Shown: positions 5,365 through 64,000 of the stretch, piece after piece | Position numbering within the stretch: the stretch's first letter is position 1 | Layout of the letters: the number at the start of each line of letters is the position of its first letter | Assembly: GCA_964399485.1 (NCBI GenBank) | Contig: CAYNQS010000006.1 | Location: 27,656-91,655 of the forward strand | Direction of reading: 5' to 3' | DNA length: 64,000 bases | Source: an uncultured Candidatus Bathyarchaeia archaeon | GTDB taxonomy: Archaea; Thermoproteota; Bathyarchaeia; Bathyarchaeales; Bathyarchaeaceae | Made by a program: the position numbers and the translations under genes | The notes under the pieces: model-generated | What the model was told of the DNA's origin: nothing | What the model saw: the letters and a program-made list of their open reading frames with translations, nothing else | Databases searched by the model: none

Positions 5365-6180
5365 TTATATCTTTCCAGCTTTCACTTGTTCGAATAGCTG
5401 TTGTGCTTCTTTGGGGTTGAGGTTTTCGTGGATTAGTCCTCGTATAGCCCGTATCATCGCCACTGGATACGGGTGCTGCCAGACGTTTCTGCCAAGATTC
5501 ACGCCTATGGATCCCTTCTGTAATCCGTCGTAAACAAACTCGAACACCTCTAATTCGGTGTCCACTTTGGGTCCGCCCGCCATTACCACCGGCACGGGAC
5601 AGCCTTCAACAACTTTGTCGAAGTCTTCTTCGCAGTAGTATGTTTTTACTACTCGGGCGCCCAGCTCAGCCGCTATTCTGCAGCATAGTGCGAGGTATCG
5701 GGCGGTGCGCTTTTCCAGTTCTCTGCCTACGGCGGTTACTGCCATGGTGGGTATGCCGTAGTCTTCGCATTGGTCAACGAGCCTTGCAAAGTTGGTTAAG
5801 GTTTGATGTTCATGTTTGCTGCCCACATACACGGACATGGAGACTGCGCTGGCGTTGAGGCGAAGAATCTCTGTGATCGATGTTATCTGTCCCTCGTTGG
5901 ACAGGTCCTCTCCCACCACGCTGTTGCCCCCAGAAACACGAAGAATTATCGGTTTTTCTATTGCTGGGTCTACGCAATTCCTGAGTACGCCTCGGGTCAT
6001 CATTATGGCGTCTGCATATGGAATCAGCGGCTTTATGGTTTCTCCGGGTTTCTCCAGTTTGCGGGTTGGACCCTGAAAGTATCCGTGGTCGACGGGCAGA
6101 AAGAGAGCTCTTCCGTCTTTCTGTATGAGCCTGCCTAATCTATTTCGTATTCCCCAATCCATCTTATTTTCCTCCCTCAT
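5365..6180 (-). CDS. Class I (DhnA/FbaB-type) aldolase: archaeal fructose-bisphosphate aldolase / ADH-synthase family
   Basis: 271 aa. DeoC/LacD-like TIM-barrel pattern (LFLPVDHG, VVKTYY with the candidate Schiff-base Lys, GVNLGRNVWQ). Confidence 0.75.
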   Translation of the reverse strand: MREENKMDWGIRNRLGRLIQKDGRALFLPVDHGYFQGPTRKLEKPGETIKPLIPYADAIMMTRGVLRNCVDPAIEKPIILRVSGGNSVVGEDLSNEGQITSITEILRLNASAVSMSVYVGSKHEHQTLTNFARLVDQCEDYGIPTMAVTAVGRELEKRTARYLALCCRIAAELGARVVKTYYCEEDFDKVVEGCPVPVVMAGGPKVDTELEVFEFVYDGLQKGSIGVNLGRNVWQHPYPVAMIRAIRGLIHENLNPKEAQQLFEQVKAGKI

Positions 6181-6388
6181 CCTTTGGTCTTACAATTAAA
6201 TAGCCTTTTTCTATGAGCCAATGATGAAACTGCCAAGTGGTGAACTTGCAGCCTGTCCTACACGTCTTTCTAATCTGCTCATACTCCTCTGACCCAGAAG
6301 CCAGCCTGTTCAATTCAACCTGCACAGGACACTCTACATCATTACAGAATTCTCTGCGCTTATAATCGATGAAACCGTCTATACTCAA
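6164..6388 (-). CDS. Small Cys-containing hypothetical protein
   Basis: 74-aa ORF overlapping the aldolase start by 17 nt (operon-like). CNDVECP...CRTGC cysteines. No family recognised. Confidence 0.35.
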   Translation of the reverse strand: MSIDGFIDYKRREFCNDVECPVQVELNRLASGSEEYEQIRKTCRTGCKFTTWQFHHWLIEKGYLIVRPKDEGGK

Positions 6389-6480
6389 ATTTATCCCTCT
6401 TGAATAGCTCTCAATTTCGTGTATTTAACCTAACTCTTAAAATTAACCTGTCCCAAGAACCATAATTTCCCATCAGCGTT

Positions 6481-6545
6481 CATATTAGGAGACTAATAAC
6501 AGAAGATTGTTGAAAACTAGCTTTTTCTGCAGAAACCAAGCAAGA
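6481..6545 (+). repeat. Copy C of a conserved ~65-nt intergenic element (candidate sRNA / upstream regulatory module)
   Basis: CATATTAGGAGACTAATAACAGAAGATTGTTGAAAACTAGCTTTTTCTGCAGAAACCAAGCAAGA. The first 37 nt are identical to the reverse complement of 12955-12991. Lies 99-163 nt upstream of the trxB ATG in sense orientation. Confidence 0.7.
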
Positions 6546-6643
6546 CAATATTGTGTTCTTTAGTGGCTGTTTCGAATAGTGAACATCACTTTGAGAGGTG
6601 AAAATATATCTCTGATTCGCCTATTCTATGATTCCGTTAGGAA

Positions 6644-7564
6644 GTGACGATGCTGTATGACGTGATAATTGTTGGTTCTGGACCCGCTGGCTTGACAGCC
6701 GCTATTTACACCAGTAGGTCGGGGCTGAAGACTGTTGTTGCCGCCGGAATGTTGTGGGGTGGTCAGCTTATGCTTACACAGGAAGTGGAGAATTTTCCGG
6801 GATTCGAAAACGGAATCCTTGGACCCAAACTTATGGAGAAGATGCGGAAGCAGGCTGAACGCTTCGGCGCAGAGCTAATCTTCGAAAACGCCACCTCTGC
6901 AGACCTCAAATCCAAACCCTTCAAAGTAACAGTAGGAAACAAAACCTACGAGGGAAAATCAGTCATCATAGCCACTGGGTCATCAGCCAAATGGTTGGGC
7001 TTAGAAAGCGAAACAAGGCTGAGGGGCAGAGGCGTTTCAGTCTGCGCCACATGTGATGCGCCCTTTTTCAGAGACAAGAAAGTTGTGGTTGTTGGGGGAG
7101 GGGACACAGCCATGGAAGAAGCATTATTCCTCTCCAAAGTTGTAAGCGAAGTCAAGGTTATCCACAGAAGGGACAAGTTGAGGGCTTGCAAGTTCCTTCA
7201 GGAAAAGGCTTTCGCGAACCCGAAGATAACGTTTGTCTGGAACAGCACAGTTCAAGAGATTTTGGGCAAGGACAGAGTAGAGGGGGTTAGGCTCAAAAAT
7301 GTTGTTGCCGGCGAAGACTCTGTTCTCTCCTGTGATGCTATTTTCTTGGCTATCGGTCACAAGCCTAATACAGATATCTTCAAAGACCAAATAGAACTGG
7401 ATCAAACAGGCTACGTGGTAGCCAGAGAGGACTCCCGAACCAACATAGAGGGAGTCTTTGTTGCAGGCGATGTTGCAGACAACCGTTACCGCCAAGCTAT
7501 CGCCGCTGCTGGTTCTGGATGCAAAGCCGCGCTGGATGCAGAGAAATATCTGATAGGAACCTGA
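6644..7564 (+). CDS. trxB: Thioredoxin-disulfide reductase
   Basis: 306 aa. GSGPAGLTAAIY FAD motif, redox-active CATCD, GGGDTAMEEA NADPH motif. Confidence 0.9.
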   Translation: MTMLYDVIIVGSGPAGLTAAIYTSRSGLKTVVAAGMLWGGQLMLTQEVENFPGFENGILGPKLMEKMRKQAERFGAELIFENATSADLKSKPFKVTVGNKTYEGKSVIIATGSSAKWLGLESETRLRGRGVSVCATCDAPFFRDKKVVVVGGGDTAMEEALFLSKVVSEVKVIHRRDKLRACKFLQEKAFANPKITFVWNSTVQEILGKDRVEGVRLKNVVAGEDSVLSCDAIFLAIGHKPNTDIFKDQIELDQTGYVVAREDSRTNIEGVFVAGDVADNRYRQAIAAAGSGCKAALDAEKYLIGT

Positions 7565-7662
7565 GGGGCACATTCAACAAAGCTTTTACACGTGATAAAA
7601 CAATAAAATGGGTTGAACGCCTCCGAAAATCGGGTAACGGAGAAACGGGAAATGAGTCAGCT

Positions 7663-8889
7663 ATGAGTGCACCATCTTACTCCAAAAAGCTGGGAATCGT
7701 CGGCAAACCAAACACTGGCAAATCCACATTTTTCTCGGCTGCAACCCTAATCCCAGTGGACATCGGAAACTACCCCTTCACCACAATCAAACCCAACCGA
7801 GGCATAGGATACCTGCGGACCCCCTGCGTCCACCCCGAATTCAAAGTTGAAGACAACCCCAAAAATTCCCTCTGTCTAGATGGAATCAGATTAATTCCAG
7901 TCGAGTTGATCGATGTGGCTGGACTGGTTCCCGGCGCTTGGAAGGGACGAGGACTAGGAAACCAATTCTTAGACGAAATCAGAAAAGCAGACGCCCTTCT
8001 CCACGTAGTCGACGCCTCAGGCTCAACAGACTGTGAAGGAAAAATCTGCAAAAAAGGGTCACATGACCCCCTAGAGGACGTTAAGTTTCTTGAGACCGAA
8101 ATAACCATGTGGATGAACCAGATACTGAAAAAGGACTGGTCTAAAATGGCTAGAACCGCCGAATCAGGTAAAGAAGACCTGATTTCGCTTCTTGAATCTC
8201 GCTTGAGTGGACTGGCTATCAAACGATTCCACATAGTTGAAAGCTTAAGAAAAACCGACCTCAACATGGATAAACCGGAACACTGGAGCGACAGTGACAT
8301 AATAAAATTTTTGGACATTCTGAGAAGCGTCTCCAAGCCAACTCTGATTGCAGCCAACAAGATCGATCTTCCAACAGCAGAAGAAAATGTTAAGCGCCTA
8401 AAAGAACGCGGATACGATGTGGTGCCTTGCAGTGCAGAAGCAGAGTTGGCCCTCAGAAGAGCAGGAGAAAAAGGTTTAATCGACTACAAGCCTGGAGACT
8501 GCAGGCTGAGAATAACAAAATCTGACAAACTTAACGAAGCCCAAAAAAGAGCACTGAACCTTATTCAGGAACAGATTCTGTATAAATTCGGGTCCACCGG
8601 CGTCCAAGAAGCCATCAACACCGCATTCTTTGAACTTCTGCAGATGGTTGCTGTCTATCCAGTAGAAGACAGTGAACACCTCAGCGACCACAAGGGCAGA
8701 GTGCTCCCCGACGTCTACCTCGTACCCTATGGCACCACTGCGCGTCAACTTGCCTACATTATCCACACCGAACTGGGAGACAGCTTCATCCACGCAATCG
8801 ACATTCGTGGGAAAAACAGAATCGGGGAAGACTATGTGCTGAAGGACAGAGACGTGGTTTCTATAGTCAGCGCCAAGAAAAGAGGGTAA
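7663..8889 (+). CDS. OBG/YchF/DRG-type GTPase with C-terminal TGS-like domain
   Basis: G1 GKPNTGKST, G3 DVAGLV, G4 ANKID. The start is moved from the ORF-track 7519 (which overlaps trxB) to the internal ATG at 7663, just before the G1 motif. Confidence 0.8.
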   Translation: MSAPSYSKKLGIVGKPNTGKSTFFSAATLIPVDIGNYPFTTIKPNRGIGYLRTPCVHPEFKVEDNPKNSLCLDGIRLIPVELIDVAGLVPGAWKGRGLGNQFLDEIRKADALLHVVDASGSTDCEGKICKKGSHDPLEDVKFLETEITMWMNQILKKDWSKMARTAESGKEDLISLLESRLSGLAIKRFHIVESLRKTDLNMDKPEHWSDSDIIKFLDILRSVSKPTLIAANKIDLPTAEENVKRLKERGYDVVPCSAEAELALRRAGEKGLIDYKPGDCRLRITKSDKLNEAQKRALNLIQEQILYKFGSTGVQEAINTAFFELLQMVAVYPVEDSEHLSDHKGRVLPDVYLVPYGTTARQLAYIIHTELGDSFIHAIDIRGKNRIGEDYVLKDRDVVSIVSAKKRG

Positions 8890-8898
8890 ACAAAAGGA

Positions 8899-9693
8899 TT
8901 ACTTGCCGAAACGGCGCTTTCGCCTCTGGTAGGTTCTAACCGCACGCAGAAGATCTATGAATCTGAAGTCTGGCCAGTTTACGTCCACAAAACATAGCTC
9001 GCTGTAGGCGGATTGCCACGACAGGAAACCGCTGAGTCTCTCTTCTCCTGAGGTTCGGATGATGAGGTCAGCGTCCTGCTTTGGCATGTGAGCTGTGTAC
9101 AGATATTTCTCGAAGAGCTTCTCGTTTATTTTCTCGGGTTTCAGTTCTCCGTTTTTTACTTTGTTAGCTATCTTTTTTGTTGCGTCAACGATTTCTGCTC
9201 TTCCACCGTAAGCTATAGCCACATTCAAGAATCGGTCATTGTACATTTTTGTTGTTTCTTCTACGCGCTGAATCACTTCTTGGGTCGATTTAGGTAAAAG
9301 GTCAACACGTCCTATGGCTTTAACTCTTATTTTGTTTTCGTGAATTCTCTCATTCTTAAGAATCGAATGTAGTTTTTCCTCAATCAACTTCATGATCTCC
9401 TCCACCTCTTTCTTGGAACGGCGAAAGTTTTCAGTTGAAAAAGCGTACAAGGTAATAAATTTTACATCCAGTTCAATGCACCAATCCATAAGGTCATCAA
9501 TCTTGTCGGCGCCGTGCTGATGCCCGATCCAAGGAATCAAAGCTTTATGGGCAGCCCATCTTCTGTTTCCGTCGAGGATGATGGCTATATGTTCCGGTTT
9601 TTTTTCCTCTTTAACTTGGAACCACAGCCACTTCTCATATAGCTTGTAGATTCCCAGAAGAGAGAGCAAACCTTCAAGCATAGTTTTTACCAC
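8899..9693 (-). CDS. uppS: Undecaprenyl/di-trans,poly-cis-prenyl diphosphate synthase (cis-prenyltransferase)
   Basis: 264 aa. HIAIILDGNRRWA, FSTENFRR and IRTSGEERLSGF motifs. Confidence 0.9.
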   Translation of the reverse strand: MVKTMLEGLLSLLGIYKLYEKWLWFQVKEEKKPEHIAIILDGNRRWAAHKALIPWIGHQHGADKIDDLMDWCIELDVKFITLYAFSTENFRRSKKEVEEIMKLIEEKLHSILKNERIHENKIRVKAIGRVDLLPKSTQEVIQRVEETTKMYNDRFLNVAIAYGGRAEIVDATKKIANKVKNGELKPEKINEKLFEKYLYTAHMPKQDADLIIRTSGEERLSGFLSWQSAYSELCFVDVNWPDFRFIDLLRAVRTYQRRKRRFGK

Positions 9694-9879
9694 AGAGACT
9701 TAATCGATTTCGGTATTACACTTTTTTGCCAAGTTATTTAGTTTTTCTAATGTATTTATGTAGATGCTGGCGGTTGTATAGACAGGATTTTCAGGTAATA
9801 AACCTTCCAATTTTCCGCAACTTTGTATGTAAACAGATCATAAACAGAAGCGCGTTAAGGCACCCAGCTTATCTGCCTG

Positions 9880-11079
9880 TCAGCTTTCCTCAAAGTCCTC
9901 CATCTCCTTCTCTGTCTCTTTGAAGTAGCCTCTGTGTCTTCTACGCAAAAATATCACAGTTAGGACTGTGAACACGATTACTGCTATCCCTCCAACGATG
10001 GCGATAAGCAAGTAGTTGTAATCGAGCGTCGGGTTGATGAGTATTTGTGAAGCCTGAACAAACATAACTGAAGAGGCGGCGACCCCAATTACTATAACAA
10101 TGGTACGCCACAACCGTAGGTCCCGCTCAAAAAACCAGCGAACCGCCCTACCTGACAATATAACGCACATACCGATAGCGATGAGATATGTCGATCCATA
10201 AAGGAACTCTCCGGAAAGTCTTGGAATATGTGAAAAGGGGTCAATCACTGTGGTGGTATTTGTAACGGGGTCAGTTACTGGCGTAACAAAATTTGCCACT
10301 GCAGTTCCTCCCAGATAGCCGCCCACAAGAATCAGCAAGATTCCTGCAAGCGCTGAAAAGCTTGCTATCTGCACAGTGAATGGAGGAGGAGAGTAGTCTC
10401 TTATCCATTTGATAACGTTATGAACTGCTTTGTCGACCCTGAACCCTCGCAGAACAAGGAAAGCACCAATGATTACGCCGAGGGCTGGTATGGCGTATGT
10501 TAATCCGCCAGGGATAAATGCTAGGGCACCTAAAACTATTAAGAGGATTCCTGGGAGACCTAGGAGCATTCGGGAGTAGCGGGGGTTCTCTACAAGAAGT
10601 TTCATGTATCGCGTAAAGAGGGCTGCTGTTTCTTCGATGGATTTGCTGTGCTGTATCACGATTCTTCGAACAGAAGTAACCGGCACTCTTGACTCAATAA
10701 GCGGCAACACCATCTCGTCTGTGTATCCGTCGGTAACGAGGATAACATCTGTCGCCGGAAACTCTTTCAGAACCTCAGTTAGTTCGGATACCAGTTGCCT
10801 GTCAGCCTCCACTCCCTCCAAATCGGAGCCTGCTATGGTTGCAACCTCATGTTCTTCTTTTCCCTTGGTGCTCTTCTTCAGGTTGTCGTAGATGCGGACA
10901 GCCTCAAACATGGCATTGGCGTCAGCTTCCTCAGGGTCTCGGAGAGCTAGACTCGCAGCAGCATTCACGTTCTCTTTTCTTCCAAGAACAGGCGTGTTTA
11001 TTCCCGCTTTCATGCCGAGGTCATCGTCCCTGTCGACGCATAAAACAAGAATGCGCTCCGGCTTAGCTGCTGTCGGCAT
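9880..11079 (-). CDS. DUF373-family archaeal membrane protein
   Basis: 399 aa. N-terminal soluble domain with ILVLCVDRDDDLG, followed by multiple TM helices. Confidence 0.6.
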   Translation of the reverse strand: MPTAAKPERILVLCVDRDDDLGMKAGINTPVLGRKENVNAAASLALRDPEEADANAMFEAVRIYDNLKKSTKGKEEHEVATIAGSDLEGVEADRQLVSELTEVLKEFPATDVILVTDGYTDEMVLPLIESRVPVTSVRRIVIQHSKSIEETAALFTRYMKLLVENPRYSRMLLGLPGILLIVLGALAFIPGGLTYAIPALGVIIGAFLVLRGFRVDKAVHNVIKWIRDYSPPPFTVQIASFSALAGILLILVGGYLGGTAVANFVTPVTDPVTNTTTVIDPFSHIPRLSGEFLYGSTYLIAIGMCVILSGRAVRWFFERDLRLWRTIVIVIGVAASSVMFVQASQILINPTLDYNYLLIAIVGGIAVIVFTVLTVIFLRRRHRGYFKETEKEMEDFEES

Positions 11080-11186
11080 GTTTGCTCTCCTACCTTATTC
11101 TTTTATTCGGAGGCACACTTTAATCTTATCTTTCTTTTTTCTATTCAAGAATCCGTGAAAAAGTTTTGCCTGTGAATGTGCCAAAA

Positions 11187-12059
11187 TTAGAGCAGCCCTT
11201 TCTCCGCCAGAATCTGAAATTCTTCCCACAACAGCTTCTCGCCGCGCTTCAGCTTCGCTAATGCCCTCTTCTCCAGCTCTTTCTGGATTTCACTCTGGCG
11301 TTCAGCCTGTTTTTTATCCGCTTTTTCCTTCAAGTCTCGTTCGATGGTTCTGATTTTTTCTGCAAGTTCGACGCATTTTTGATGTGGGTTCTGGGCTTGC
11401 TGCTTGCTTTCCACATATTTTTGGTGGGCATCATCAGCTTCAACTTGGAGTTTGCGGGCTTTGTCTAAGGTTTCAAGCATCTTTTCATGGAATTTTTGGC
11501 TCTGTTCAGCCAGTTCAGAAAGTTTTCCGTGAAGGGTTTCTGCTTCAACTCTAAAGTTTCTCTCTTCGGTTCGCAGCTCAACGAGTTTTTGTTTCAGTTT
11601 TTTTATTTGCTTCTGAACTACGAGTTGTGCTTCAAGTTGTCTCACCCTGTTAACGAGAGTCTGCTCTTCCTTTACTGGGAGGGATGTTGTTTGAATCTTC
11701 CAGTCAATCTCCTCAATCTCCCTCTCTACCTGCCGCAGATTTCCTTTCGGCTTCTCTTCATTCAACACCCGAATTTTCTCTTGTAACTCCAAAATCTGTT
11801 CACGCTTCTCCCCGCGTCTAACCTTCACCTGATCACGCAGGTTTTTCAGTTCCTGAACCTTCTCGTTTAAGGCGTCTCTCTCTTCTTTGATGCTGCTTGC
11901 CTCTTTTCGCAGATTTCTGATTTTTTCGTGGATGGCATTTCTCTTTTCAGCCCACTTTTCTGCTTCCCTGCTCAGTTTGTTTCGTTCTTCCTTAAGCGGG
12001 GCCAACTCTTGGTTCAGTTTTTCGATTTCGTGTGCAGGGGAATCAGACATTTCTTTCAC
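11187..12059 (-). CDS. Archaeal coiled-coil protein (COG1340-like)
   Basis: 290 aa, almost entirely heptad-like K/E/L/Q-rich sequence. Confidence 0.6.
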   Translation of the reverse strand: MKEMSDSPAHEIEKLNQELAPLKEERNKLSREAEKWAEKRNAIHEKIRNLRKEASSIKEERDALNEKVQELKNLRDQVKVRRGEKREQILELQEKIRVLNEEKPKGNLRQVEREIEEIDWKIQTTSLPVKEEQTLVNRVRQLEAQLVVQKQIKKLKQKLVELRTEERNFRVEAETLHGKLSELAEQSQKFHEKMLETLDKARKLQVEADDAHQKYVESKQQAQNPHQKCVELAEKIRTIERDLKEKADKKQAERQSEIQKELEKRALAKLKRGEKLLWEEFQILAEKGLL

Positions 12060-28668: not shown

Positions 28669-28953
28669 CCTTGTTCCTCCAAATGTTATCTGCGCTAAAC
28701 ATGTCTAACTGTTCTCTGGATAAAACTTTACATTGCTGACCAAAATTCAAGGTTCAACTTCTCTCTACAAACTCTATTTAAATAAGTCAATTTTGGTTGC
28801 TTGCTGTTGCGGATGTGATGTAGCGTTTTCGAAGAATGTCTATAGTCTATATAGATTACTGGGTATATGTCTATATTATCCGCTCAGTTATTGAACCCCA
28901 TGCAGGAAGATAACAACAGAAGGTTAGACAAGACAGTTGGAGGTGAGCGTGGA

Positions 28954-29076
28954 ATGAGATGCCCTAACTGTAACTCGGAAATGGAAATAGACAAAGAATC
29001 AGGTTACATGAAACAATACAGATGCGATGTCTGCAGAAGAGTGGAAACATTGTGGACCGTCTGCGTAACCGCATAA
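28954..29076 (+). CDS. Small Zn-ribbon protein
   Basis: 40 aa from the ATG at 28954, preceded by the SD-like GGAGGTGA (28939-28946). CPNC...CDVC pairs. The ORF-track start at 28867 is probably too far upstream. Confidence 0.45.
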   Translation: MRCPNCNSEMEIDKESGYMKQYRCDVCRRVETLWTVCVTA

Positions 29077-29128
29077 ACTCCCAAATAGAAAACAGTTTTT
29101 ATTAACATACAAACCATATTCCTCCACA

Positions 29129-57137: not shown

Positions 57138-57356
57138 GGTCTGGTTTTCTGTTTTCTCGTGGTCTGCGTAGTAGCTGAGTCCCGCCGTTACTCCGGTGGA
57201 TACCGCGAACCACAGAATCATGGCTGTAACGTTTCCCTGAGTGACGATGTATGATAGGGCAATGGAGGCGCCGTGGACAACCGCGAGAATGGCAGAGAGT
57301 TTTGGTTTAAATTCTAATCCCATGACATCACTTCCAGTCACGGTTTGTTTTCCCAC
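57135..57356 (-). CDS. Small two-TM membrane protein (holin-like topology)
   Basis: 73 aa with two hydrophobic helices. Start overlaps the 3' end of the portal-like gene by 19 nt. Confidence 0.4.
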   Translation of the reverse strand: MGKQTVTGSDVMGLEFKPKLSAILAVVHGASIALSYIVTQGNVTAMILWFAVSTGVTAGLSYYADHEKTENQT

Positions 57357-58540
57357 AACTCGAAACCGGCTTTCATCAGGTTTTTCCGCACCTCTTCCGG
57401 TCTCACATATGGGGTTTCGGATGTGGCGCTTATCTCGGCTAGTCTGATTAGGTCTTCTAGTTTGACTTCAGGTTTTTCTGTGCCCCAGTTTAGTCTGCAG
57501 TTTGCCTTCGCTGGGTTGAGGCTTGCCTGCCGTATTAGGGGATTGAAGATTTCTCGTTCGCAGGTTCTTTTTATGAATCGTTGTAGTGCCATTACTTTTC
57601 TTTCCGCGATTTCCAGGGCTGCTCTGGCTGATGCTTCTGTGAAGCCTGGGGTGGTGAACAGTTTTGGCAGTGGGGTTTGTCCGCCCAGGTAGACTTGGTT
57701 GAGGATGTGGTCGATGTAGGCTTCGTAGCGGGCTTTGGGGTCTACGGTGACGGTTTTGATGTCTGCTTCTGGTTTGTTATACACGAATCTTGCGCCTGCT
57801 TTGGGTTTGCTTTTTATGAGTTTCTGGTATTCGGCGAGTTTTTCGTCGCTGGCGCCTGCGAAAATCCACAGTTCGTCTGGTCCAGCGTATTTTTCGAAGA
57901 TTTCGGGCATGATTTTTTCTATGCGGGCTTTCATTTCGAGAAAGCTGATTCTTGTTTCTCCGTTGAAGCTGAGTTCGGTGAGTAGTACTTGAAGGACTCC
58001 TGTTCCGTATGCTGAAAAGTTAACTGGGTTCCAGCGGAAGTGGACGATTTTTTCGGGTTTGAAGGCTGTTTTCGCGTCTCCGTAGCTGTAGTTGTAGCCT
58101 GTGACCTGACCGTACTGGTTTCGTTTTATTGCTGTTGGGTTGTCGAAGCCTGTGAGGGGCAGTATCTTCAGGTTCTGCAGGTGTTCAGGTTCTGTTTTCA
58201 GCCAGAAGCTGTTGCCTGATGCCACGATTTCTCTGGCTGCGATCTGCAGTAGCTCGTCTAGGTTGACTGTTTCGTTGAAGCTGTCTATGATCTGTTTTGC
58301 TTCTTCGGCGCGTGCGTATTCTTCGTTGATTGTGGTGTAGAATCCAGCGCCTACGGCTTGGTCTGCTAGAAAGTCGACGAAGGCTTTGCAGCTGGGGTCT
58401 CTGGTGTAGGCGGTTATTATGTCGTTGAAGGTGACTGTTCGGGTTTCTCCGTAGATTTGTCTCCATGCGGGCAGCAGGACGCCGTTGGTTTGTTGGAGTT
58501 TTCCGTAGAATTCTTTGAGTTTGTTTACGACTACGCTCAA
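57338..58540 (-). CDS. Head-tailed-virus portal-like protein (HK97/Phage_portal-like)
   Basis: 400 aa. IAAREIVASGNSFWL, EKIVHFRWNP..SAYGTGVL and LNQVYLGGQTPLPKLF resemble conserved portal blocks. Judged from recalled motifs only. Confidence 0.5.
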   Translation of the reverse strand: MSVVVNKLKEFYGKLQQTNGVLLPAWRQIYGETRTVTFNDIITAYTRDPSCKAFVDFLADQAVGAGFYTTINEEYARAEEAKQIIDSFNETVNLDELLQIAAREIVASGNSFWLKTEPEHLQNLKILPLTGFDNPTAIKRNQYGQVTGYNYSYGDAKTAFKPEKIVHFRWNPVNFSAYGTGVLQVLLTELSFNGETRISFLEMKARIEKIMPEIFEKYAGPDELWIFAGASDEKLAEYQKLIKSKPKAGARFVYNKPEADIKTVTVDPKARYEAYIDHILNQVYLGGQTPLPKLFTTPGFTEASARAALEIAERKVMALQRFIKRTCEREIFNPLIRQASLNPAKANCRLNWGTEKPEVKLEDLIRLAEISATSETPYVRPEEVRKNLMKAGFELWENKP

Positions 58541-58596: not shown

Positions 58597-58962
58597 CTAT
58601 GCTGAGTGCTGTTTAGGTGCCAAATTTTTCTTAGATGGATCGTTGAAGAGGGCTATGATGGCTTGTCCCCTGTCTGTGAGTTTGTAGTATTTTGCGGGGA
58701 GGAACTTGTCTTCTTCGATGTGGTCGACTTCTAGGAGATTTGCTTTGAGGCAGTATCTGAGGTAGCGGTAGATTTTTTTGCTGTCGAAGTGGAGGCTGCT
58801 GTGATAAAGCTGATACACGTTGTTGGCGTTCTTTCTGAACATGTTGAGAAACTTCAGGGTCTCCAGCAAATCGCAGAATTTGGAGCCTTTTTTGGGTCCA
58901 CGCTGCAACAACAGCACCAACCAAAAAGAGGGTGGGTAGAAGGGTATCAGATTTTTTGACAT
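58597..58962 (-). CDS. Winged-helix (PadR/MarR-like) DNA-binding protein
   Basis: 121 aa. KIYRYLRYCLKANLLEVDHIEEDKFLPAKYYKLTDRGQ has a recognition-helix-plus-wing pattern. An alternative overlapping frame (58631-58975) was judged less protein-like. Confidence 0.45.
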   Translation of the reverse strand: MSKNLIPFYPPSFWLVLLLQRGPKKGSKFCDLLETLKFLNMFRKNANNVYQLYHSSLHFDSKKIYRYLRYCLKANLLEVDHIEEDKFLPAKYYKLTDRGQAIIALFNDPSKKNLAPKQHSA

Positions 58963-61419: not shown

Positions 61420-61598
61420 AACAAACTGGAGAATCAATGAAGAATCTCTTTTGTTGGCTAAATTTCTGAGAAATGAACGTAAAGAGTGGATTCCTCGCAT
61501 CGTAATTAAAGAATAAAAGTCATAAGTCATCATTCTCCCATGACCAGATGTTTTATAACCAATTAGTTTTAAGATGTTTTTGAGGTGAGTAAAGGCAA

Positions 61599-61760
61599 AT
61601 GCCCATGCTTTATCTTAAATGCAAAACTTGTGGAATAAAATTCGCATCAGGAATTTCAGTAGATAGAACTAGCTTCAAAACGCTAAGCTTGATTAATAAT
61701 TCGCATACCTGCCCAAAAGGACATACACACGCTTATAACAAGCAAGATTATTCCTTTTAA
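61599..61760 (+). CDS. Small Zn-ribbon protein (53 aa, below the ORF-track cutoff)
   Basis: Manual translation: MPMLYLKCKTCGIKFASGISVDRTSFKTLSLINNSHTCPKGHTHAYNKQDYSF. Preceded by SD-like GAGGTGA (61582-61588). Confidence 0.45.
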   Translation: MPMLYLKCKTCGIKFASGISVDRTSFKTLSLINNSHTCPKGHTHAYNKQDYSF

Positions 61761-61796
61761 TATCGCGACTACTCAGTATTAAAGAGGTGAAGATTT

Positions 61797-62579
61797 ATTC
61801 CTGAGCCTTCTCTAAAAACTCGGAAAGTAGTTTATGAAAGATGGAGAGGTAAATGCGCTTTCTGTGGTATTGACCTACCCTTCGAACAACACCATATTAT
61901 CGCCAAAAATGACTCCCCAGAGTTGATTGATGACCCTGATAATTTGATTTTGTTATGTGCAAATCATCATGGTTTGACACTTAAGAAAAAACCAGATGAA
62001 CGCCCAGCAATTGCAATTGAAGATATTGACGACCTGCAAAAATCTGGTTTTGCCAAAGCAGAAAAAAGAGGTTTTTATTTTTCCATTCCTCAAAATTTTT
62101 CGCTTTCTTTAGGTAGTAATCTTTGCATAGGATGTCCCTATATTCTTATTGTTAATGATAAACCGTTGATTGAGATGTGGCCTCAGAGGACTGCCTTTTA
62201 TGTTGAAGAACCCAAGGTTTACCTTTACATGCGATTCTTTGATGACGAGAATAATTTTATAGGAGGAATGTTTGCGAATCATTGGGCTTCCGTTGTTAAT
62301 GAGGAATGGAAGTTGGATATTCTGGAAAATGAAATCATTGCTAGACACGTAAAGAGACCGATTTTCGTCAAATTTGAGCGCGATAAAAACTTGGTTCGAA
62401 TAACAGGACGGTTCTATTTTGATGGAATAGAAATAACTGCCAAATATGATAGCCTTCTACTAATGACAAATGTGTTCTCAGGAAATATGGCAAGAAATTG
62501 CGAAGTAGCTTTTATTGTGAAAGGAAATCGTGAATCAGCCTCATTAGGATTCTGTGGTCGATTATCTACGAAATTTTAA
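61797..62579 (+). CDS. HNH endonuclease-domain protein with ~200-aa uncharacterised C-terminal domain
   Basis: The frame is open from 61791. Upstream of the ORF-track start it encodes ...WRGKCAFCGIDLPFEQHHIIAKNDSPELIDDPDNLILLCANHHG (C-x2-C...HH...N...H HNH motif). The only plausible initiator behind SD-like GAGGTGA (61784-61790) is an in-frame ATT at 61797. The start is uncertain. Confidence 0.6.
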   Translation: MPEPSLKTRKVVYERWRGKCAFCGIDLPFEQHHIIAKNDSPELIDDPDNLILLCANHHGLTLKKKPDERPAIAIEDIDDLQKSGFAKAEKRGFYFSIPQNFSLSLGSNLCIGCPYILIVNDKPLIEMWPQRTAFYVEEPKVYLYMRFFDDENNFIGGMFANHWASVVNEEWKLDILENEIIARHVKRPIFVKFERDKNLVRITGRFYFDGIEITAKYDSLLLMTNVFSGNMARNCEVAFIVKGNRESASLGFCGRLSTKF

Positions 62580-62626
62580 TGCTCTAATTTTGAACTATGT
62601 GTTTTCTATAATTTGTGTTTTTTCTA

Positions 62627-62716
62627 CATGTGTATTGGGGAGAGAGCAGGTGGGAGCGCGGTGTAAACGCACGGGCACACATACGTACGTGTACGGGCGT
62701 ATGGACACGAGTACGT
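62627..62716 (+). repeat. PAL-associated upstream module (copy 2) with alternating purine-pyrimidine tract
   Basis: Homologous to 49761-49861 (blocks GAGAGAGC, GGTGTAAACGCAC, CACACATACGTACGTGTACGG, ACG..GGGTTTGGG). Perfect R/Y alternation at 62675-62695 (21 nt). Confidence 0.7.
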
Positions 62717-62738
62717 GGGTTTGGGTTTAATTTTAATC
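62717..62738. repeat. PAL element copy 7 (degenerate right arm)
   Basis: GGGTTTGGGTTTAATTTTAATC, between the convergent 3' ends of the HNH gene and the Shedu-like gene. Confidence 0.75.
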
Positions 62739-62788
62739 TCTCTGGCATCGCTCAATACTAAGAATTAAAGCCGTAAATCTCAAGCAAC

Positions 62789-63892
62789 TTATTTTTGCTT
62801 TGAAATAGCATCCAAATATTCTTGATACCGTGATTTGCATTGATTTACTACAGAAAAATAAGACTTGAATTCAATTGAGGGAATCAAGTTGATTGCCTTC
62901 TTTAGATGGGGAGTAATGTTCTTTGCTATTAGGAATCCCTGTTTTTCATCATATTCCGCAAATTCATCAACAAGAACCAAGTAATCCATTAGTTGAGTTA
63001 TGTGTTCCTGTTTAACTTGCATTGAAGGCCTTTTAATCTCAACTACGACCAGTCTTTTTTCGAAATCAGCACAAATAAAGTCAGGACGTCTTTTCCTATA
63101 TTTTTTCCTGTATTCTTTTCCAAGAAAATTTGAAAGTGTTTTGTTAGAACGGAGAAGCCAATACTTATCGTCAAGAATCCAAAGCGCACCTGCAAGTTGG
63201 TTATGTACAGAGTTTTTCCCTTTAATCTCATAGGCATTTTCATTTTGAATGGATGCATCAAAAATTGTTAACTTCCGTAATCTACTGCCAATAATGCTTG
63301 CAACAGAAGTAATTTCCGGCAGAGTGTATTGCTGCATTAGTTGGTGTAGTTTTTTCATTCCTTCAGGCGATTTTTCTTTTCCTAGCTCATTAATCAGTTC
63401 TTTCAAAGTGTTAGCCATTATGTCTTGTTTACCCAATAGAGACCTAAAAGCTGTCTCTACAAAATCGCTAAGAACATCAAAATCTTCAATTTCGACTTCG
63501 CCACGATAAACTTGGTCAAAAGCTTTCAAAATGCTGATTGCCGCTTTAGGGTATTGTTCAACAATCTTCTTTACTTGTGGGTCAATTGCTTCTTCTTTTC
63601 TCAATTGTTTTTCTAAAGCTTTTAGAAGAGGTGGTAATTTTTCCCATTTCAGTTTATTTGCTAAGTAATCTAACACTGGTTTGACTTTTGCTAGTTCCTC
63701 AGGGGTTTTTATTCTAACGGATTGATAATAAAATGGGCTTTGACGGGGTCCAGTAGGGCCTCTAGTCAACCTGTATAATTGTAAAGCTCCTCTGGGATTA
63801 AAAATATCCTTATAAGCTCTCATGTAAAATTTCTGTTTGATGATTGTTTGTCTATCGATTATAGTTTTTTGAGTTGCACCTTGATTTGACAT
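62789..63892 (-). CDS. Shedu-like protein: variable N-terminal region plus C-terminal PD-(D/E)xK nuclease (DUF4263-type)
   Basis: 367 aa. C-terminal ...HNQLAGALWILDDKYWLL...RRPDFICADFEKRLVVVEIKRPSMQV...QLMDY fits the D...(E/V)xK restriction-endonuclease-fold core and the DUF4263 pattern as I recall it. AT-rich. Confidence 0.5.
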   Translation of the reverse strand: MSNQGATQKTIIDRQTIIKQKFYMRAYKDIFNPRGALQLYRLTRGPTGPRQSPFYYQSVRIKTPEELAKVKPVLDYLANKLKWEKLPPLLKALEKQLRKEEAIDPQVKKIVEQYPKAAISILKAFDQVYRGEVEIEDFDVLSDFVETAFRSLLGKQDIMANTLKELINELGKEKSPEGMKKLHQLMQQYTLPEITSVASIIGSRLRKLTIFDASIQNENAYEIKGKNSVHNQLAGALWILDDKYWLLRSNKTLSNFLGKEYRKKYRKRRPDFICADFEKRLVVVEIKRPSMQVKQEHITQLMDYLVLVDEFAEYDEKQGFLIAKNITPHLKKAINLIPSIEFKSYFSVVNQCKSRYQEYLDAISKQK

Positions 63893-63968: not shown

Positions 63969-64000
63969 TTTCCGTCACTGAACAAATTTTCATTCTTATT

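Follow-up and report, generated by a model that had tools for sequence, protein, structure and literature searches.

Introduction

How is an archaeal nuclease translated when its catalytic motif begins ahead of every canonical start codon in its frame? This question is raised by a locus near the 3′ end of a 64 000-nucleotide stretch of DNA from an uncultured Candidatus Bathyarchaeia archaeon (contig CAYNQS010000006.1; this whole stretch is referred to below as the window), where a gene for a 53-residue Zn-ribbon protein is followed by a frame encoding an HNH nuclease. On direct translation this frame, which begins RFIPEPSLKTRKVVYERWRGKCAFCGIDLPFEQHHIIAKNDSPELIDDPDNLILLCANHH, is open from 61791 to 62579 and is closed upstream by the TGA at 61788–61790. 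Its first ATG, GTG or TTG is the TTG at 61923, codon 45, from which the listed open reading frame (ORF; 61923–62579) is called. The 44 codons ahead of this TTG encode RFIPEPSLKTRKVVYERWRGKCAFCGIDLPFEQHHIIAKNDSPE, which together with the downstream LIDDPDNLILLCANHH forms a complete HNH motif of the full CxxC..HH..N..CxxHH type. A preliminary description of this DNA had pointed to the open frame and its motif, as well as to a Shine–Dalgarno (SD)-like GAGGTGA at 61784–61790 with an in-frame ATT 6 nt further on; the former is borne out by our translation and Pfam searches and the latter by the sequence itself. The same description left two explanations side by side: initiation at a rare AUU codon or a gene truncated at its 5′ end.

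Here, we report a comparison of this locus with its relatives. The pattern of substitutions and the alignment of homologous start regions indicate that the nuclease gene is intact and unlikely to be a 5′-truncated pseudogene, and that the best reading of its start region is a conserved non-canonical start, most likely the AUU at 61797. We also describe the predicted nuclease, its small partner, the mobility of the two-gene unit and the defence-related settings in which relatives of both genes occur, and we propose how such a unit may work.

The start region of the nuclease gene

The close-clade DNA was taken from genome, metagenome and assembly collections, the metagenome contigs carrying no organism assignment; the closest genome matches are metagenome-assembled genomes of Bathyarchaeia. 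Eleven distinct variants were compared, the window counted among them. Residues of the nuclease are numbered from 61791, the first codon after the in-frame TGA. The features on which the argument turns are the following.

61784–61790, + strand: SD-like GAGGTGA of the HNH gene, its last three bases being the in-frame TGA
61797–61799, + strand: ATT, the proposed non-canonical start, in frame and 6 nt after the SD
61797–62579, + strand: full-length nuclease gene, 260 codons from the ATT, with an N-terminal HNH and a C-terminal all-beta domain
61923–61925, + strand: TTG, codon 45, the first canonical start, lying past the first CxxC and the HH and taken as the start in the ORF track and in database gene calls

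Codons 3–44, compared among ten variants by the Nei–Gojobori method, differ at a proportion of synonymous sites (pS) of 0.46 and of non-synonymous sites (pN) of 0.10, which gives a ratio of non-synonymous to synonymous substitution (dN/dS) of 0.15; over codons 45–262 of the same variants the ratio is 0.20. This low ratio, together with the retained Cys, His and Asn residues of the motif, indicates that the HNH segment is under purifying selection at the protein level and makes a truncated gene unlikely.

The start regions themselves read as follows, from the SD (its first four bases in lower case) to the codon at the start position.

Window and L025: gaggTGA AGA TTT ATT
L021: gaggTGA AGA TTC ATT
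L006: gaggTGA AAA CTC ATT
L007/8: gagcTGA AGA TTT ATT
L024: aaggTGA AGA CTC ATT
L027: gaggTGA AGA GTC ATT
L009: gaggTGA AAA GTC ATT
L026: gaggTAA AAT AAC ATT
L001/11/12: gaggTGA AAA CTC GTT
L022/23: gaggTGA AAA CTC GTC

ATT thus occupies the start position in nine of the 11 variants, and GTT or GTC in the other two, which belong to one sublineage. The SD is GAGGTGA in eight variants and AAGGTGA, GAGCTGA or GAGGTAA in the remaining three; it holds an in-frame stop in all 11, and its spacing to ATT or GTY is exactly 6 nt in all 11 despite several indels in the intergenic DNA upstream. No canonical start precedes the HNH motif in the close relatives examined, and the first such codon falls at position 29, 37, 45 or 52 depending on the variant (ten variants counted; L026 was left out because its frameshift makes the count meaningless). 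The chance that 44 sense codons would lack ATG, GTG and TTG is ~11%, or (58/61)^44, so that a single sequence would not be significant and the case rests on an arrangement kept in 11 variants. The GAGGTGA 7-mer occurs only five times on both strands of the window, two of these preceding the Zn-ribbon and HNH genes. A search of the window for other genes with an SD followed by ATT gave none that was convincing, and there is therefore no sign of general ATT starts in this genome.

Protein homologs place the start at the same point. A protein search returned 27 homolog clusters. All 16 clusters at 69–91% identity are called at 195–234 residues from differing internal starts and have no Pfam domain, and the clusters at or below 67% identity are mostly 254–267 residues long and carry HNH_2. 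In the latter the initiator Met aligns within 1–3 residues of the RFI of the window, and these distant homologs open with M, then 2–4 residues, then the EPSL-T motif. One of them (L013, 67% identity) reads TGA AAG TTG GTG GTG CCG at the homologous place, where TTG GTG GTG are canonical starts. The comparison of N-termini called for in the preliminary description therefore reveals no longer N-terminus in distant homologs and finds ATG or GTG at the homologous position, which rules out the disruption of an originally longer protein. Three distant beta-domain proteins (P0032, P0034 and P0036) are likewise called from starts inside or after the HNH motif (MVALCPTCH..., MVVLCANCH...), and hidden N-termini or non-canonical starts may be more widespread in the HNH-beta family.

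If the gene were decaying or truncated at its 5′ end, the HNH part would go untranslated, and either nothing would be made or the beta domain would be produced, without nuclease activity, from the TTG at 61923 or a similar codon. Such an explanation would account for the missing canonical start before the motif in every close relative, for the loss of the ATT itself in one lineage and for the stops or frameshifts in three relatives; the beta domain also occurs without an HNH domain in some distant proteins. Intact frames of 261–267 codons are present in nine close-clade variants, the window counted. The locus L009 is decayed (C22Y, together with a stop at W173). Frameshifts are present in L002 and L026 and are possibly assembly errors, the one in L026 being a 1-nt loss in an A7 run. 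Nevertheless, the supposedly untranslated 42 codons have the dN/dS of 0.15 given above and fully keep the HNH Cys, His and Asn residues, and no stop has arisen in them in ten variants despite the high synonymous divergence (pS 0.46). The SD has been kept, as has its distance from the ATT, and the first canonical start moves from variant to variant. We therefore regard truncation as improbable.

Programmed +1 frameshifting would offer a different route into the HNH frame. Ribosomes would start at the GTG at 61787 inside GAGGTGA, read the mini-ORF GTG AAG ATT TAT TCC TGA and shift at UCC_UGA to yield MKIYS-EPSLKT.... UCC UGA is the antizyme shift site. The GTG, with a YYC-TGA/TAA stop five codons on, is found in the window, L025, L021, L006, L024, L027, L001 and L022; the mini-ORF is thus also present in the GTT/GTC lineage, for which AUU initiation has no explanation. 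The stop survives in L006 as TAA instead of TGA, although Glu has become Lys in the HNH frame, and L009, in which the stop is lost (TGG), is a pseudogene. However, L026 has the ATT with GAGGTAA, and hence no GTG, and has no stop at the shift position, and L007/8 has CTG for GTG with its frame intact. Start, shift site and stop are therefore not kept in all functional orthologs, which argues against a frameshift gene of the RF2 or antizyme type. Moreover, no separate SD serves the GTG, and the conserved Pro/Ser-Glu codons (NCT GAN) are enough to produce the TGA. When the segment from the SD to the proposed shift site is read in the HNH frame, its substitutions are conservative; read in the mini-ORF frame, they are radical (I/T/S, Y/H/R). 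A stimulatory RNA structure is not conserved either. Around the start site, RNA folding showed nothing stable or conserved: RNAalifold gave −5.8 kcal/mol with a single compensatory pair, the single-sequence fold had a z-score of +1.1 and Rfam gave no match, and on these results a riboswitch, a frameshift stimulator and a sequestered SD at this site were all rejected. As frameshifting would also need two rare events, it appears to be a very improbable explanation, the least probable of those considered here.

The dN/dS of 0.15, the ATT in nine of 11 variants and the starts of the homologs thus favour AUU initiation over truncation, while the GTT/GTC sublineage falls outside a simple AUU model.

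The HNH core and the C-terminal domain

The protein read from this frame has two parts.

61854–61973, + strand: HNH (beta-beta-alpha-metal) core, with C22, C25, H34, H35, N51, C56, H59 and H60
62064–62558, + strand: C-terminal all-beta domain, residues ~92–256, of some 16 strands

Residues 22–61 match Pfam HNH_2 (E = 2e-8, 34.4 bits against a cutoff of 21) and Pfam HNH (E = 4e-5, 24.0 bits against a cutoff of 21.4), a match that lies mostly upstream of the first canonical start, and HNH families of the PHROG collection match the core with E values down to 7e-8. In the alignment of full-length homologs, C22, C25, H34/H35, N51, C56, H59 and H60 are conserved throughout. An AlphaFold2 model built from alignment A1 has a mean predicted local distance difference test (pLDDT) score of 86.6 and a predicted template modelling (pTM) score of 0.83; it comprises the HNH domain at ~8–64, a helix at 76–84 and the all-beta domain at 92–256. 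With Foldseek, the HNH part matches Cap5 and the Gme HNH nicking endonuclease with probabilities of 0.93–0.98, HNH-containing chains of Cas9 with 0.80–0.94 and phage HNH proteins with 0.97–1.0. Curated thresholds, conserved residues and the predicted fold thus agree on membership of the HNH (beta-beta-alpha-metal) superfamily, from which we infer that the protein belongs to it and would cleave DNA through this core.

The C-terminal domain had been called unrecognized in the preliminary description, and it has stayed so: it matches no Pfam family, has no sequence relative in the PDB and no internal repeat, and Foldseek returned no fold match in the PDB or BFVD. This domain of ~165 residues is modelled confidently (pLDDT 87). 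It is rare, with 13 cluster representatives among 1.84 billion and about 50 clusters among 5.8 billion, and elsewhere it is preceded by other HNH variants or by a hydrophobic N-terminal stretch resembling a membrane anchor. A literature search on the HNH-beta/Zn-ribbon family found nothing. One 386-residue protein (P0030) is a chimeric call that joins a tyrosine-recombinase-like N-terminal part to the last ~70 residues of the HNH-beta domain, which suggests that an integrase-bearing element has been inserted into, or ends inside, a copy of the HNH-beta gene.

The Zn-ribbon gene and the upstream region

The part of the locus ahead of the nuclease gene, and the end of the unit, hold the following features.

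61551–61558, + strand: TATA-like box TTTTATAA, within a conserved block CA[CT]ATGTTTTATA, ~25 nt 5′ of the first SD
61582–61588, + strand: SD-like GAGGTGA of the Zn-ribbon gene, 10 nt ahead of the ATG and kept across the close clade
61599–61760, + strand: 53-residue Zn-ribbon gene, a listed ORF with an ATG start
62618–62623, + strand: T6 run, 39 nt past the stop codon and close to where DNA homology with other loci ends on the 3′ side; it may be an archaeal oligo-T terminator

The Zn-ribbon protein has the pattern CxxC ... H-x-CPKGH, in which C8, C11, C38 and H42 are invariant across 11 homolog clusters. Its AlphaFold2 model (pLDDT 78) consists of two beta-hairpins and one helix in a generic Zn-ribbon-like arrangement, and a fold search gave no specific PDB match, just generic rubredoxin/Zn-ribbon noise. 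According to tblastn and the DNA alignment, the gene lies directly upstream of the nuclease gene in every close-clade locus that holds the sequence concerned, with 36–40 nt between its stop and the ATT. The Zn ribbon of L026 is divergent (49% identity, with CPNCG for CPKGH) and sits in the same place. The two-gene unit suggested in the preliminary description thus recurs in all of these loci, and the possibility that the pair never co-occurs elsewhere is removed. The Zn-ribbon gene is absent from all of the distant loci with canonical nuclease starts. Its gain and the loss of the canonical start coincide and were probably a single evolutionary event, a coincidence that fits a design in which the nuclease would be made only together with, and below the level of, its Zn-ribbon partner.

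The block CA[CT]ATGTTTTATA is kept in eight of the eight close-clade loci holding upstream sequence, and the alignment contains no comparable conserved box between the Zn-ribbon and HNH genes. This points to one promoter and a bicistronic mRNA, with the TATA-like box as the likely single archaeal promoter of the cassette. We also considered read-through or fusion of the two ORFs. In the window both are in one frame, with two stops between them; their relative frame is the same in the window, L001 and L007 and different in L006 and L009. Because it differs between variants, the two ORFs are not fused.

The preliminary description had further noted the same SD ahead of the Zn-ribbon gene and near 28939; GAGGTGA and GGAGGTGA, respectively, are indeed found there. 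The perfect GGAGGTGA precedes a 41-codon Zn-ribbon ORF (28939–29078, + strand; CxxC...CxxC), whose sequence is unrelated to the 53-residue protein. In this genome, small Zn-ribbon genes seem to be singled out by strong SD motifs.

Mobility and neighbouring genes

DNA homology between loci is confined to the interval from ~61460/61548 through 62573–62625. We searched for conserved neighbours by running tblastn with five neighbours in the window (a PD-(D/E)XK protein, an MFS transporter, a cation-efflux protein, a PadR-like protein and a portal-like protein) against L001–L027 and found nothing. On an 82-kb Bathyarchaeia-like contig (L028), the pair has a rolling-circle Rep gene (REP_ORF2-G2P) on one side and a tyrosine integrase on the other, and in L030–33 it lies between Cbf5/TruB and a peptidase gene. 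Since the flanking genes differ between loci, the ~1.1-kb unit is mobile. The L028 island itself (6071–11756, ~6 kb) stands in a housekeeping region, flanked by TBP and by MFS/tRNA-synthetase genes, and is probably a small integrated plasmid or virus. No tRNA genes that might serve as integration sites were found in the window. Searches of IMG/VR with both proteins, and tblastn searches of phage and plasmid collections with the nuclease, returned no relatives, and a viral, phage or plasmid origin was rejected on this basis.

Recombination has also acted within the unit. Between L001 and L022 the promoter, the Zn-ribbon gene and the 5′ HNH segment are near-identical, with three substitutions in the 5′ 42 codons, and ~170 substitutions separate the remaining 218 codons. 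This contrast indicates that within-gene recombination between cassette lineages has spread the 5′ segment.

These features raise the alternative of a selfish, free-standing homing endonuclease cassette, in which the HNH core and a DNA-binding beta domain would cut cassette-free alleles, weak translation would limit the harm and the Zn ribbon would be an accessory. A unit of ~1.1 kb with sharp homology borders in at least four unrelated contexts speaks for homing, as does the recombination between the alleles of L001 and L022. An N-terminal HNH followed by a C-terminal binding domain is a common homing endonuclease layout. Moreover, a phage homing element has been described that contains a hidden HNH gene, translated in an alternative frame from a GTG (PMC11855218). 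Nevertheless, the cassette is intergenic, outside any intron, intein or conserved target gene, and its insertion sites share no recognizable target. Relatives of the nuclease occur inside a restriction–modification (R-M) operon and beside a Shedu gene, and the Zn-ribbon family accompanies other defence effectors, as detailed below; the viral and phage collections, in which homing genes of this kind abound, hold no relatives. Homing fits the mobility of the cassette and is a live alternative, though an unlikely one, less so than truncation or frameshifting.

The gene next to the cassette (62789–63892, − strand) had been called Shedu-like in the preliminary description. Its 367-residue product has a C-terminal PD-(D/E)XK/NucS-like nuclease core (D..EIKRP), gives sub-cutoff matches to NucS_C (8.7e-4), to other PD-(D/E)XK families and to NucS (7e-6, well short of the cutoff), and matches phrog_6203, a family of unknown function, with E = 4.5e-20. 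No SduA match was obtained at E ≤ 0.1, and BLASTP against the true SduA of L017 gave E = 0.1 around the D..EIK motif. Without an SduA_C (DUF4263) match, a Shedu-like identity is not established, and the gene, absent beside the pair in every other locus, is no part of the unit.

Further from the cassette, a 400-residue protein (57338–58540, − strand) shows weak portal matches (phrog_2662, 2.5e-6; Pfam portal families, E ~0.05–0.09), and a PadR-like small protein is encoded beside it (58597–58962, − strand); the two genes may be a provirus remnant close to the cassette. Between two convergent genes lies a GC-rich patch (62639–62743; 49% against ~34% around it) with the inverted repeat GGGGAGAGAG / CTCTCTCTGG at its borders. 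As RNA, its minus strand is more stable than shuffled sequences (z = −3.0, 2 of 200) and its plus strand is not (z = −0.7); no Rfam match was obtained, and neither the rest of the window nor the fetched loci contain a second copy.

Defence-related contexts and known systems

Relatives of both genes are found among defence genes. In L015 (1290–6037), an N6_N4 DNA methyltransferase (564 residues), an HNH-beta protein (263 residues, ATG start) and a ResIII helicase (750 residues) are encoded with 4-nt gene spacings and with RadC upstream, as a type III-like R-M operon with an extra HNH-beta gene. In L016/17, the HNH-beta gene adjoins a true SduA (SduA_C in L017, E = 4e-23). Homologs of the Zn-ribbon protein with 62–66% identity are encoded 150–165 nt upstream of an ApeA-like HEPN gene (PDC-S58, E = 1e-61). 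Such homologs also stand ahead of the gene for a restriction-like nuclease that has an NmeDI_C domain and, on its flanks, SIR2 and type I R-M genes; by eye the N-terminal part of this nuclease looks EVE/PUA-like. One further homolog is 1.5 kb from a SacI-like R-M pair, and those in L037–39 have no recognizable partner.

Searching the two proteins against PADLOC-DB 2.0 gave matches to the HNH core and no full-length system, and the Zn-ribbon protein had no match. The view of the pair as a defence module, put forward in the preliminary description, gains from the defence contexts in which relatives of both genes stand, and finds no PADLOC model that reaches beyond the HNH core. From these circumstantial associations, a role in defence or addiction is plausible and unproven.

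Several known systems resemble the cassette in part. Cap5 of the cyclic-oligonucleotide-based anti-phage signalling system (CBASS), an HNH–SAVED protein, likewise has an N-terminal HNH and a larger C-terminal non-catalytic domain, and it is the best solved-structure match to the HNH part of the nuclease (Foldseek 0.98). However, the C-terminal domain of the nuclease is all-beta and has no match to SAVED or any other known fold, the partner is a 53-residue Zn-ribbon protein, and no cyclase or other signal gene adjoins the pair, whose neighbours are an MFS transporter and a PD-(D/E)XK protein. With neither a SAVED match nor a neighbouring cyclase, the identity of a Cap5-type CBASS effector was rejected.

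R-M operons with a C protein provide a second comparison, since there too a small gene is co-transcribed upstream of a restrained nuclease (co-transcription being predicted in our case from the single conserved box), and a homolog of the nuclease is embedded in the type III-like Mod/Res operon of L015. In contrast to a C protein, the small protein here is a Zn ribbon rather than a helix-turn-helix protein and its regulatory role is putative, and the proposed throttle is translational (AUU) rather than transcriptional. We looked for a methyltransferase among the window genes at 57–64 kb (the window ends at 64000) and in L028 and L030–33. None was found next to the pair, be it in the window or in other loci of the close clade, and the pair was not taken for an R-M system.

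The bacterial genes infC and pcnB have an ATT start conserved across orthologs behind a good SD, where a weak start caps expression, and we propose the same for the cassette; they differ in that the cassette is archaeal, that one of its sublineages has GTT or GTC and that no IF3-like feedback factor is implied. Finally, phrog_6544, a phage family of unknown function, is the only library family that aligns over both nuclease domains. The alignment is weak (residues 21–250 against positions 28–246 of a 248-position profile, E = 4e-7), and it stands in contrast to the lack of any nuclease relative by tblastn in the phage, plasmid and IMG/VR collections.

Proposed mechanism

We lean slightly towards the following reading: a ~1.1-kb mobile bicistronic cassette of Bathyarchaeia, in which an AUU-started nuclease is held at a low level, serving restriction-like or abortive-infection defence (or addiction). 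The order of the cassette would be promoter, SD, ATG, 53-residue Zn ribbon, ~36 nt, SD, AUU, 260-residue nuclease and T-rich stop. Ribosomes recruited by the second SD would initiate at the AUU at 61797 with low efficiency, and this weak start would keep a potentially self-toxic DNA nuclease well below its ATG-started Zn-ribbon partner, a throttle with the logic of the weak infC starts or of the controlled expression of restriction enzymes and toxins. The nuclease would cut DNA via its HNH core, the beta domain would provide recognition of a target or ligand, and the Zn-ribbon protein would be a modular regulator, inhibitor or adaptor. Most likely, the cassette would then act as a restriction-like or abortive-infection defence (or addiction) module.

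A number of observations weigh against this reading. On the side of initiation, AUG, GUG and UUG are, to our knowledge, the only established starts in Archaea. The sublineage of L001 and L022, which is represented by many contigs, has an intact frame with GTT or GTC for ATT (a synonymous Val change), and by anything known to us GUU and GUC are very poor start codons. In this sublineage, initiation would thus be extremely weak or would proceed by a mechanism other than plain AUU recognition; the allele there may have been silenced of late, or its expression may be very weak. The three codons after the in-frame stop vary conservatively (R/K, F/L/V, I/V) and could be translated, the GAGGTGA motif precedes just a few genes in the window, and three relatives (L009, L002 and L026) look decayed. 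On the side of defence, the assigned role is deduced from gene neighbourhoods at few loci, the pair has neither a methyltransferase nor any other immunity gene beside it, and the effector models of PADLOC-DB 2.0 match the HNH core only (residues ~17–73), with E = 2.6e-5 or weaker. The negative searches of IMG/VR and of the phage and plasmid collections belong here as well. As to near-cognate initiation in other archaea, ribosome profiling in Haloferax has placed near-cognate codons at ~30% of putative alternative start sites, without validation (PMC7261190).

A bolder form of this reading would make the Zn ribbon an unrecognized modular part of archaeal defence islands that is combined with interchangeable effectors (HNH-beta, ApeA-like HEPN and NmeDI_C-type nuclease). 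The HNH effector would be obligately AUU-started and always sub-stoichiometric, and the whole would amount to a new two-gene immune or addiction system with a translational safety catch, giving Archaea a natural instance of conserved AUU initiation. We hold this form to be possible and rather doubtful.

Conclusions

The cassette is an HNH-effector module that stands out by an unusual translational feature and by a consistent gap in its annotation. Its close homologs in public protein collections are all called from internal starts, so that no HNH domain is annotated in them, and a group of archaeal nucleases is thereby invisible to domain-based surveys, including defence-system finders. If the AUU start holds true, a conserved start other than AUG, GUG or UUG that follows a strong SD would offer a clear natural example in which to study near-cognate initiation in Archaea, and its use to limit the dose of a toxic enzyme. 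In Bathyarchaeia, a lineage abundant in sediments, the cassette points, moreover, to a modular defence component that has so far gone uncatalogued.

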